Positions 32,250 to 37,061 of a DNA stretch of 64,000 bases are shown here, piece after piece; the first letter of the stretch is position 1; every line of letters starts with the position of its first letter. The notes below the pieces were generated by a model, which worked only from the letters and a program-made list of their open reading frames with translations, ran no database searches and was not told the DNA's origin. Both the position numbers and the translations under genes were made by a program. This DNA comes from Candidatus Omnitrophota bacterium (lineage in GTDB: Bacteria; Omnitrophota; Gorgyraeia; Duberdicusellales; 4484-171): contig JAIPGM010000002.1 of assembly GCA_021735655.1 (NCBI GenBank), forward strand, positions 128,001 through 192,000, written 5' to 3'.

Positions 32250-35200
32250 ATGAAATTAAAAACAAGCAAAACCCAAACTTTACTTTATGTCGGGTTTGTT
32301 CTTTTGGCTGTTGCTATGATTACGACAATAGTCATAACCGGTACAATAAGCAGCATAAAAACCGCCAATCAACAGGGCAAGGGGGCTGAAGCTTATCAAT
32401 TGGCTATGGCTGGTATTGAACGAGCTAAGACCGAATTAACTGCTAATTGGGATACTTGGACTATGGATACTCTTTTGGATGAGGATCCACATCGCGGAGA
32501 TACAACTGGTTTAGATGAAACCGAAGCTCTCGGAGAAGGACAATATTGGGTTCGGGTTTTAGACACTGTTCCGGCTGATCCTGATAAGTTATGGATTATT
32601 TCTCATGGCTGGGTGGATGATGCCCATCGGATTATTGAGGTCGAGTTCCAACGGCCTACGGTAGCTGCGCTTGATCCGAGCTTGGTTGCTCACTACCCCT
32701 TTGAAGGCGATGCAACTGACTTAAGCATTTATGAAAATCACGGAATTGAAGCTGGAAATATTGCCTATGGCGTTGGTAAATTTGGCCGAGCTAAAAGATT
32801 TGACGGAAACGGTGACTATGTTGATTGCGGCACTGATCCAAGTTTGGACTTAGGGGGTTCTTTTACCATTAGCGCTTGGGTTAATCCTACTGTTTTAGAA
32901 AGTTATGCTGGCATTGTTAGTAAAGATTCTAATAGATGGTCTCCCTACAGTTATATGGCTGTAACTCATGGTTCCTATATGGGTATTTTTGATAATGCCG
33001 CCTGGCGGTTCTCTGCCCCAGGGGTGATCAGCGCCAACACTTGGCATCATCTTGTTTGGGTTCATCAATCTGGTACGGTCACACTTTATGTAGACCGAGC
33101 ACTTGTCGGCACAAGTCTTATGCTTGACACTGACGACCCCAATGATAATACTTATATCGGTAGTTGGTATTCAGGACACACGGCTTATGATTTTAATGGT
33201 TATATCGATGAAGTTAAGATTTGGAACCGGGCGCTGAATATAGCTGAGATTGAGGCAGAAAACCGGCGCACAGACCCGATCGCCCACTACCCCTTTGAAG
33301 GTAATGCCTTTGATGCTAGTGGTAATGGAAATAACGGAACCGAAGGCGGAGACATTGCCTATTCTACCGGTAAAATTGACCAGGCTAAAAATTTTGATGG
33401 TAGCGGAGATTATGCCTTAATACCGGCAACAAGCAATTTTGATCTTCAAGATATGACTATTTCTTGTTGGACCTATTCTGATAATTATGATGCTAATATG
33501 TTTATGTTTGAAAAAACTACCAATGACAGCGTTAATACTCAGTATTCGTTATTTTTTAATGGTGGTGGAAGCAGTAGTCAAATTTATTTTCGTACCTACG
33601 GCCTTTCTGCCGTAAATCTTGTAGCTACCGATCATGCTAACGGTCCAGTAGATGGTCAATACAATCATATTGCTGCTACCTATACTTCGGCAACTGGCAC
33701 AAAGAAGATATATTGTAATGGTAACGAAATAGCCACGGTTAGCGGCCTTAGCGGAACAATCAATACAAATCCGGCTGGTACGTCTTGGATTGGAGCTTAT
33801 GGCGGTGGAGCAGGATATCCTTTTAATGGCCAAATTGACGATCTTAAAATTTGGAACCGAGCATTGACTGCCGATGAAGTTAGGGCCGAATTTATCGAAG
33901 GAAATGATGGTTTGGTCGCTTACTATCCTTTTGAGGGGAATGCCAATGATCTAAGCGGCATCGGAAATCACGGAACTCAATTTGGAAACGTTTCTTATGG
34001 CACTGGAAAGTTCGGTCGAGCTAAATTTTTTGACGGAAGCGGTGATTATGTTGATTGCGGCAGCGATTCAAGTCTTGATTTTAGTAACGCTTTTACGATT
34101 AGCGCCTGGATTAATCCAACTACCTTAAAAAACTATGCTGGTGTTGTTTCTAAAGATTCTAATCGATGGTCACCTTATAGTTATATGGCGGTTTCTCATG
34201 GTTCCGGGTATATGGGGATTTATAGTGGTGGTTGGCTGTGGGCTGCAGCTAGTCCCGGATTAATTCAAGTTAATAACTGGTCTCATCTTACCTGGGTTTA
34301 TCAGAATAACCTAATTTATTTTTATATTGATGGGGCACCGGTAGGCACAAGTGCTATGGCCTACACCGATGACCCCAATGATAATACTTATATCGGTAGT
34401 TGGTATTCCGGTGGTACTGGTTATGATTTTAGGGGTTACATCGATGAAGTTAAGATTTGGAACAAGGCTCTAAGTGCTGATGAAATTGCCGAGAATTATC
34501 GTGGTGGGGTGACTGCCCAATCAATAAGGCAGGGCTTAGTCGCTGACTATCCTTTTGAAAATAATAGCTGGGCTGATTTAAGCGGTTTAGGAAATGATGG
34601 TACAGCTCAAGGAGGTGCTTCTTTTGTCGCTGATGGACAAGTCGGCCAGGCTGCTAGTTTTGATGGTATTAATGATCGTGTAATTGTTGATGATGACCCG
34701 TCCATATCTGGATTAAATGCGGTGACAGTTTCAGCCTGGATTAGGGCTCAAGATTTTGGTGTCGGCGGTGATTATAATTTTGTTGCTACTAAATCTAATT
34801 GGGATGACAATCGGGAGTATAGGATAAGAATTGAGAATGGAAATACCCTTGTCTGGCATATAAGTAATGATGGTAATGATCCAGGAGGTGCAGAGAATTC
34901 GATCCCGGTCGCTGGAAACCTAAACCTTAATCAATGGCACCATCTAGTCGGAACTTATAGTGATACGGATTCTTTATGTAGACTTTATGTTGATGGTAGT
35001 CTTAAAGACACTGACACCTGTGAAGCTGGAGGTATTTTTAATGGTACGGCCAATCTTGCTATTGGTGGCTCCGGCGATAATGGGGCCAGCGGGAATCAAG
35101 ATGACTTCCATGGTCGAGTCGATGAAGTTAAGATTTGGAACCGAGCTTTAGGGGTAGATGAAATTGAATGGCTTTATGCTAATGAGGTTGGAAATAACGG

Positions 35201-37061: not shown

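Follow-up and report, generated by a model that had tools for sequence, protein, structure and literature searches.

What do two giant genes of one pilus locus share when their products agree at the C-terminal end and diverge elsewhere? The locus lies in the window, a 64,000-nucleotide (nt) stretch of the genome of a Candidatus Omnitrophota bacterium (GenBank assembly GCA_021735655.1, contig JAIPGM010000002.1, positions 128,001 to 192,000), and encodes two proteins, A and B, of 987 and 1603 amino acids (aa), which an earlier note had taken for adhesins linked by recent exchange of a cassette of about 480 nt and by a conserved C-terminal 10-mer. The evidence gathered here suggests that A and B are probably alternative tip subunits of one filament machine of the type II secretion system (T2SS) or type 4 pilus (T4P) kind, each made of a GspK/PilX-type domain, a LamG payload and a closing tail strand, and that their 3' ends go back to an old block exchange. 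The features of both genes on which the argument leans are the following.

25623-28586, + strand: gene A, 987-aa candidate K-type tip pseudopilin with N-domain, four LamG units and tail, directly upstream of the T2SSF gene
28554-28586, + strand: tail of A, KPVSGTWGER and stop, within (I/L)KPVSGTWGER
32250-37061, + strand: gene B, 1603-aa second candidate K-type tip pseudopilin with N-domain, seven LamG units and tail, between the GspM-like gene and valS
32250-32681, + strand: N-terminal pilin-like (GspK/PilX_N-like) domain of B, a hydrophobic alpha-1 helix followed by strands
37029-37061, + strand: tail of B, KPVSGTWGER and stop, with the family-wide C-terminal [ST]-W-x-E motif

The pilin-like domain and the C-terminal tail

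Both open reading frames, and the seven LamG units of B, agree with what the earlier note had reported. In the Pfam scan, Laminin_G_3 (PF13385) matches seven stretches of B (553.8 bits, E 3e-168) and four of A (364.4 bits), being above the gathering cut-off of 27.6 and found once per unit, as in Laminin_G_3 repeat proteins. Matches to TafC (NCBIfam) were not used because they are partial LamG alignments far under the cut-off. The N-domains, each of about 140 aa, are 54-57% aa identical to each other, and their last strand, at residues 134-143 of A, has diverged (HRIVVLEL in A, HRIIEVEF in B). The PilX_N (PF14341) label that these proteins had received fails by the Pfam threshold, with 15.0 bits (E 0.025) on A, below the gathering score of 25.5, and no match in B, but it holds by way of intermediates: a profile of the A and B N-domains matches P0255 (E 6.5e-7), P0256 (E 1.3e-6) and P0269 (E 2.5e-4), whose own PilX_N scores are 30.0, 30.2 and 44.9 bits. 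In the Pfam and NCBIfam scans, neither protein gave a sequence match to GspK models or to the beta-propeller of PilC/PilY1 (IPR008707), the N-terminus being a pilin-like hydrophobic helix. Also, a PDB sequence search using the N-domain profile returned nothing significant, a word-seeded search with the B N-domain gave no match, and a pattern scan for the N-domain in GTDB genomes found none. The product of gene B is present in the representative protein library as P0242 (1603 aa), and an exact-product look-up of B returned no record.

The statement that both proteins end in (I/L)KPVSGTWGER encoded by nearly identical DNA is confirmed, with 32/33 nt identical, stop included. Six-frame translation of the window finds KPVSGTWGER in no other protein, and a degenerate DNA pattern for the 10-mer plus stop gave 0 matches in genome_contigs and 0 in metagenome_contigs; therefore, the exact 10-mer is private to this genome, and only its core, [SP]G[ST]W, is shared. 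The tail DNA was also considered as a downstream ribosome-binding site and rejected, since T2SSF starts 34 nt past the stop of A with its own AAGGA, and valS starts 96 nt past B with its own promoter-like site.

The core motif belongs to a wider family. The profile of both N-domains, scored exhaustively against 1.84 billion representative proteins, has 39 matches, and 33 of them end in a Trp followed by 1-6 residues, mostly as [ST]-W-x-E, versus 8/240 controls; the six exceptions include one truncated fragment, one unrelated repeat protein and one member with Tyr in place of Trp. Many members are only 128-170 aa long, the N-domain being followed directly by the tail with no payload in between. 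Two MAFFT alignments, of 24 and 28 members, have four invariant columns, one of which is the tail Trp (W984 in A). This motif offers a simple, testable means of recognising tip subunits of this class from sequence.

The predicted structure of a payload-free member suggests what the tail does. The AlphaFold2 model of P0249 (predicted local distance difference test, pLDDT, 93.8; predicted template modelling score, pTM, 0.81; last block pLDDT 93) has a 60-residue N-terminal helix, four main strands and further strands at 139-142 and 148-149, so that in this model the tail belongs to the one pilin-like domain. A long N-terminal helix lies on an antiparallel sheet and the fold is closest to solved K subunits, as in GspK/PilK-type tip pseudopilins. 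On the other hand, features of a sorting signal (PEP-CTERM, LPXTG, GlyGly-CTERM or the C-terminal domain, CTD, of type 9 secretion) were looked for in the tail and none was found: the chains end 3 residues past the Trp, with no hydrophobic segment, basic tail, CTD-sized domain or CTD family match, and the same motif ends pilin-like proteins of 130 aa that carry no payload. Hence, of the earlier proposal that the 10-mer is a docking or sorting signal, the conserved element stands, now family-wide, and the sorting function does not; the tail is a conserved functional element that most likely completes the pilin-like domain.

Three observations lead to the assignment of A and B as K-type tip pseudopilins: the GspK-like fold, the absence of Glu at +5 in both proteins and the gene order, in which an H-like gene, an I-like gene, gene C, gene A and T2SSF follow one another, that is, the K-type gene comes after the H/I/J minor pilins, as it does in the related loci.

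Related loci and their changing payload

Related loci were found by a T2SSF search, with relatives at 72-85% identity. In six of them, the gene directly upstream of T2SSF (the A position) keeps the N-domain of about 140 aa and the tail motif, and everything between is different.

L005, A position, 567 aa: Cys-rich regions and one LamG, ending in HILSGTWSER
L002/L003, A position, 749 aa: NHL-like beta-propellers, ending in VQSGSWRKP
L009, A position, 445 aa: NHL-like beta-propellers, ending in VEPGSWREE
L011, A position, 734 aa: NHL-like beta-propellers, ending in VVPGTWQGK
L001, A position, 322 aa: a domain of no recognised type, ending in ARPGTWKEN
L012/L014, first gene of the B slot, 322 aa: propeller protein ending in IEPGTWQEE
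L012/L014, second gene of the B slot, 1344 aa (L012) and 1386 aa (L014): propellers, cassette-type LamG and B1-type LamGs

With the four LamG units of A, the payload at the A position comes in several types, from LamG strings through Cys-rich regions with one LamG and NHL-like beta-propellers to the unassigned domain. Three lineages (L002-L004, L005-L007 and L009) have no gene in the B slot, between the GspM-like gene and valS. In L012/L014, three K-like paralogues are present, two of them in the B slot, and those of L012 carry three different tails (TVIPGTWRER, IEPGTWQEE and IIPGTYREV...). From these comparisons, gene B would be one case of a recurring retention of extra tip-subunit paralogues. 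Moreover, two samples of apparently the same population have B-like genes of unequal length (L012 10001-14035 and L014 15887-20047), the longer one having one extra beta-propeller blade repeat, which points to variation of payload length at the population level.

The locus would therefore illustrate how pilus specificity could be set, with a constant scaffold of pilin domain and closing tail, and an adhesive payload that is swapped, lengthened or duplicated between species and samples.

History of the shared 3' block

Proteins A and B were cut into units at the recurring linker x-V/I-A-Y-Y-P-F-E, giving A1-A4 and B1-B7. The units and tracts that bear on their history are listed here.

27318-27935, + strand: unit A3, partner of B6
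35796-36413, + strand: unit B6 (the cassette), penultimate LamG of B, of a conserved subtype
36414-37058, + strand: unit B7, last LamG of B, paired by position with A4; parent type of B1 and B3
27318-28586, + strand: 3' block of A (A3, A4 and tail), colinear with 35796-37061 of B
36012-36221, + strand: low-divergence core of B6 (partner 27534-27743), with 11/62 silent codons differing versus 41/87 outside it

Units A3 and B6 align without gaps at an offset of 8478 nt, with 75% aa and 77% nt identity per unit and a longest exact run of 39 nt. Over the stretch of about 475 nt that had been called almost identical (27432-27905 compared with B6), 129/158 aa (82%) and 80% of the nucleotides actually agree, and 93% nt identity is reached only in a core of about 190 nt (27534-27722; 60/63 aa, 92.6% of nt). 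When all pairs are computed, A3/B6 is the top pair as claimed, but it does not stand far above every other, because a second subfamily, B1/B3/B7, shows 58-68% aa and 66-71% nt identity (B7 shares 63% aa with B1 and 58% with B3). Units A4 and B7 are 45% aa identical, and the remaining pairs outside these two groups range from 27 to 45% aa.

The cassette has relatives well outside the locus. Single-LamG secreted proteins annotated as Planctomycetota (P0001, P0002, P0005-P0013 and others) share 53-66% aa with A3 and B6 over 158 aa, above any sibling unit, and have the same conserved core; the segment that is best conserved between A3 and B6 is also the best conserved across this Planctomycetota-type cassette family (core RESIVSYKEG.GVNQGFVLCLNENGSSQYPR). 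These proteins differ from A and B in that they have a signal peptide, Fn3-like region(s) and, as an anchor, a hydrophobic Cys/Gly-rich C-terminus that finishes with a run of Arg, and lack both a pilin domain and the Trp tail. In addition, XB2, the equivalent unit in a B-like gene of the Omnitrophota genome L012, is 68-69% aa identical to A3 and B6. As judged by these comparisons, the cassette is a distinct, slow-evolving LamG subtype under purifying selection, which explains most of its aa identity.

As a separate observation, the cassette-type LamG proteins P0001, P0002, P0005-P0013, P0016, P0021, P0024 and P0028 (a few of them annotated as Planctomycetota) all end with a Cys/Gly-rich motif (e.g. 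CGLLGLE), a hydrophobic stretch and an Arg run, a C-terminus that looks like a sorting anchor of the PEP-CTERM or GC_trans_RRR kind.

Silent sites date the shared tract. They were assessed with f, the excess of identical codons over the expectation from codon usage. Among the 66 unit pairs, the highest value is that of A3/B6 (f = 0.40), followed by that of A4/B7 (f = 0.39), versus a null mean of 0.09 (standard deviation 0.09, maximum 0.29), and the N-domains of A and B lie at the null (f = 0.08), with a synonymous divergence (dS) of about 2.1, which is saturated. The dS is 0.83 for A3/B6 and 0.99 for A4/B7, and the nonsynonymous divergence (dN) is 0.17 for A3/B6, indicating purifying selection, and 0.54 for A4/B7, indicating fast divergence. 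In the last 11 codons, 8/9 silent codons of the tail are the same in A and B versus 3.1 expected (p=0.001). Because the silent-site excess of A4/B7 equals that of A3/B6, the shared tract would be the whole 3' block and not a 480-nt cassette, and the similarity between A and B begins at a unit boundary (27315/35793). On these grounds, the whole block of about 1.27 kb (A3-A4-tail and B6-B7-tail) appears to have a younger shared ancestry than the N-domains.

The simplest account of this silent-site pattern would be a single exchange of the whole 3' block between A and B (27318-28586 and 35796-37061), through recombination at the conserved unit linker. The exchange would postdate the divergence of the N-domains and yet be old, with a dS of about 0.8-1, and afterwards A3/B6 would have been constrained while A4/B7 diverged. 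The exchange that the earlier note had proposed is accordingly kept, although neither its recent date nor its extent of 480 nt is. By itself, the cassette similarity would then be an old exchange of a conserved module, of limited interest, the most interesting part being the family-wide Trp motif and the possibility that it is a cis plug.

Exact matches of 17-25 nt recur at the IDEVKIW motif and unit linkers of dissimilar LamG units (26610-26629, 33207-33226, 34443-34462 and 35121-35140; also, 27942-27958 equals 33918-33934). These matches are a ready microhomology for unit shuffling.

A history with no exchange at all, in which A and B are whole-gene duplicates of one age and selection held cassette and tail alike, would agree with the conservation of the cassette subtype across phyla (53-66% aa), with the family-wide tail motif and with the conservation of core silent sites between genomes. 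However, the step of f from 0.08 in the N-domain to 0.39-0.40 in both 3' units includes A4/B7, which is weakly constrained, and, in the N-domain, B resembles the A-like protein of L012 (61%) as much as it resembles A (57%), so that we regard this history as very unlikely.

A recent conversion of the cassette has some observations on its side. The low-divergence core of A3/B6 has a dS of 0.31 versus 1.3-1.4 in its flanks (Fisher p=0.0014; scan permutation, corrected for the choice of boundaries, p=0.047), and f is 0.69 in the core and 0.18 in the flanks. The two copies are also closer to each other (75% aa) than to XB2 (68-69%), at silent sites as well and with one outgroup genome, as expected of converted paralogues. 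Together with the nearly identical tail DNA and the top rank of A3/B6 among unit pairs, this favors a recent conversion of the cassette of about 480 nt, which was proposed jointly with the 10-mer as a sorting or export signal. Nonetheless, the core already differs at 7% of its nucleotides and its flanks are near saturation, which is not recent. Moreover, a comparison of either copy with XB2 (core at L012 12059-12268) gives the same contrast, with f = 0.33-0.42 in the core (p ≤ 0.001) and 0.02-0.06 in the flanks, and between genomes conversion cannot act; for this reason, the core does not appear to mark a younger conversion tract. Since A4/B7 also shows the excess, which extends the tract to the whole block, and the tail lacks the features of a sorting signal, we find the joint proposal improbable. 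Two other causes of silent-site conservation in the core were considered and rejected: an antisense gene, whose frame, open in A3 and B6, is interrupted by a stop codon in the copy of L012, and a conserved mRNA structure (z = +1.09 against shuffles, covariation term 0.14).

Finally, an old block exchange presupposes two real loci. Repetitive genes in a short-read metagenome-assembled genome (MAG) could be a collapsed or chimeric assembly of one repetitive locus, and the interior of B (32933-36635) lies outside the independently matched ranges. However, Logan contigs of run SRR12088349 are 100% identical to the window over 27639-32932 and 36636-42841, which confirms both junctions of B. These contigs end at the only exact repeats of at least 31 nt (a 39-mer, 27630-27668 = 36108-36146, and a 31-mer, 32903-32933 = 36635-36665), as expected for two real loci in a k=31 graph. 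In addition, the A3 and B6 copies differ at 23% of positions, and a related genome has the same two-slot layout on contigs of 305-380 kb. An assembly artefact is thus scarcely credible.

The proposed tip subunits, their tail and the surrounding operon

From domain composition, the family-wide tail motif, synteny, the silent-site pattern and the fold of the minimal homologue, we infer the following arrangement for A and B. The N-terminal hydrophobic helix without Glu5 would be that expected of the topmost subunit of a filament. The payload, LamG modules of the ConA-like, lectin type (four in A and seven in B), would be inserted between the pilin core and its closing C-terminal strand; the chain would then return to the pilin domain, where the tail would add the last strand or strands to the sheet. 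S. sanguinis PilC carries a ConA-like module, and by comparison with it the LamG string may serve as a lectin-type adhesin. Since there is one tip per filament, the two proteins would be alternatives, giving tips of differing reach and specificity, and the conserved penultimate LamG (A3/B6) would be present on both tips, presumably for one shared ligand.

The comparison with known systems supports placing A and B among the modular tip minor pilins, an already known kind, as a new variant architecture. GspK/XcpX of the T2SS and PilK/PilX of type 4a pili (T4aP) are the top subunits of an H-I-J-K minor-pilin tip complex, and A and B are likened to them; in the A/B family, however, the insert is a hypervariable string of up to seven LamG or propeller modules, and not one alpha-domain, it precedes the C-terminal Trp motif, and the residue at -1 is A, T or S rather than G. 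In monoderm T4P, S. sanguinis has modular minor pilins, PilC with a ConA-like lectin module and PilB with vWA (PMC9934059, PMC8179133). These share with A and B a pilin moiety onto which a ligand-binding module of the ConA-like superfamily is grafted at the filament tip, a location that for A and B is deduced; they have a canonical class III signal peptide and one C-terminal module, whereas A and B have 4-7 tandem modules and a conserved motif that ends the pilin domain.

The third comparison concerns the tail. According to a 2026 preprint (Denic et al., bioRxiv 10.64898/2026.09.18.752573), the C-terminal 'plug' of PilC/PilY1 is proposed to dock on the K-type pilin by beta-strand addition, and PilC1 and PilC2 have an identical tail and N-terminal regions that are 54% identical. 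As in A and B, a very short C-terminal motif is carried by a large tip adhesin, and paralogues share an identical tail while other regions diverge. In contrast, A and B lack the IPR008707 beta-propeller and a Sec signal peptide, their motif keeps its sequence ([ST]-W-x-E) whereas the plugs of PilY1 are reported to vary, and K-type domain and tail sit in one polypeptide, a naturally occurring equivalent of the engineered PilK-plug fusion. In A and B, the tail would then do in cis, as a built-in part of the protein, what the plug of PilC/PilY1 does when it stabilises PilK.

Generalizing from this, we tentatively propose, as a possibility that we hold at somewhat less than even chances, a previously undescribed form of K-type pseudopilin: a split domain that accepts any payload, from none to seven LamG units or propellers, before a 'self-plug' strand of the [ST]-W-x-E type, with 1-3 paralogues per genome as a tip repertoire. 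If this is true, such proteins would represent the PilC/PilY1-PilK plug in a natural cis form, which would also suggest that the trans plug of PilY1 arose when a protein of this kind was split, or that the change went the other way. Also, if the tail docks in cis, plug interactions would not be confined to T4aP bearing PilY1, and these proteins would offer a natural template for the display of cargo at filament tips.

Alternatively, the tail of A and B could dock by beta-strand augmentation on another subunit (the product of gene C, the I-like pilin or the N-domain of the other paralogue), as PilC/PilY1 does on PilK, so that the far end of the LamG string would be tied to a neighbour or heteromeric tips would be built. 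The PilC plug is a precedent, and the tails of A and B are identical while their N-domains have diverged, including the last strand, as selection by a shared partner would produce. On the other hand, in payload-free members the tail directly follows the last strand and is placed with confidence in the same domain by AlphaFold, and the three different tails of the three L012 paralogues fit a co-evolution of each tail with its own N-domain. Docking in trans is for these reasons rather unlikely, and we prefer a tail that closes its own pilin domain.

Several points nevertheless weigh against this preferred arrangement. The identical tails of A and B, with N-domains only 54-57% identical, fit a shared third partner in trans at least as well as docking in cis. 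In the AlphaFold2 model of A, the N-domain is well predicted (pLDDT 89-98) and the LamG units poorly (mean pLDDT of the LamG part, 53); the final 7 residues (pLDDT 76), of which 984-986 form a strand, follow a disordered linker (pLDDT <50), and the partner of the tail strand is not visible and could be the LamG unit A4. A Foldseek search with this low-confidence model returned only generic LNS/LamG arrays (neurexin, laminin). Moreover, a closed loop of seven LamG domains would need to cross the secretin as a hairpin, and none of these LamG units has a known ligand. Finally, at -1 of the putative prepilin site, A has Ala (KKA|QTLLYV) and B has Thr (SKT|QTLLYV) instead of G, with KG|Q in minimal relatives, so that processing is uncertain.

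Members of the Omnitrophota are ultra-small and uncultured, and are believed to live attached to other cells or to prey on them; type 4 pili are their most widespread candidate attachment device (PMC10066038). A lectin-type adhesin at the pilus tip would fit such a host-attached lifestyle. The genes around A and B form a single long + strand operon encoding a type-4-filament machine, of which gene B is probably the last gene, valS lying next to it.

14527-16830, + strand: secretin (profile match)
16846-18567, + strand: T2SSE/MshE-type ATPase (profile match)
3' of the ATPase gene in operon order, + strand: three pilin-like genes with N_methyl motif
20957-23294: ABC-transporter ATPase and two genes without family match (253 and 303 aa), between the pilin and minor pilin genes
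23227-23841, + strand: H-like minor pseudopilin with N_methyl motif; GspH match below the curated cut-off
23838-24377, + strand: I-like minor pseudopilin with N_methyl motif; ComGE, PilV and XpsI/GspI matches below the curated cut-offs
24377-25648, + strand: gene C, 423-aa minor-pilin-like protein at the J position, with pilin-like N-terminus and a single C-terminal LamG (Laminin_G_3 at residues 259-412)
28620-29819, + strand: T2SSF platform gene (Pfam, NCBIfam)
29821-31494, + strand: PilM/GspL-like gene (Pfam, NCBIfam)
31487-32182, + strand: GspM-like gene (Pfam, NCBIfam)

An NCBI 'Candidatus Omnitrophica' MAG encodes a protein with 100% identity to the T2SSF product. In the related loci, homologues of gene C keep the N-terminal part and have the C-terminal module swapped. 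The 5' end of gene A overlaps the 3' end of gene C by 26 nt, and the public protein of gene A, P0241, has 981 aa, 6 codons short of the longest open reading frame, so that the start codon of A is uncertain (25623-25640). Between the stop of B and valS lies a sigma-70-like site, TTGTAA-17-TATAAT, at 37087-37115, which suggests that valS is transcribed separately and that gene B is the last gene of the pilus operon.

The block of the ABC ATPase and its two companion genes keeps its position in all related Omnitrophota loci (L002 1925-4265, L009 3493-5830 and L014 4220-6554). In one lineage, a small 23S_rRNA_IVP gene (PF05635) stands between the minor pilin genes (L009 6390-6764 and L001 3125-3505). 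The 'symbiotic' F-type ATPase reported for Omnitrophota beside the pilus locus is absent from the first 10 kb of the window, where housekeeping genes are found. About 7 kb upstream of the secretin and outside the main operon, 5708-7845 encodes two proteins, one of 357 aa in which the N_methyl (prepilin) motif is weak and one of 334 aa without family match. Downstream of the locus, a tmRNA gene (157 bits) and one tRNA gene are located at 52542-52899 and 53866-53939, respectively.

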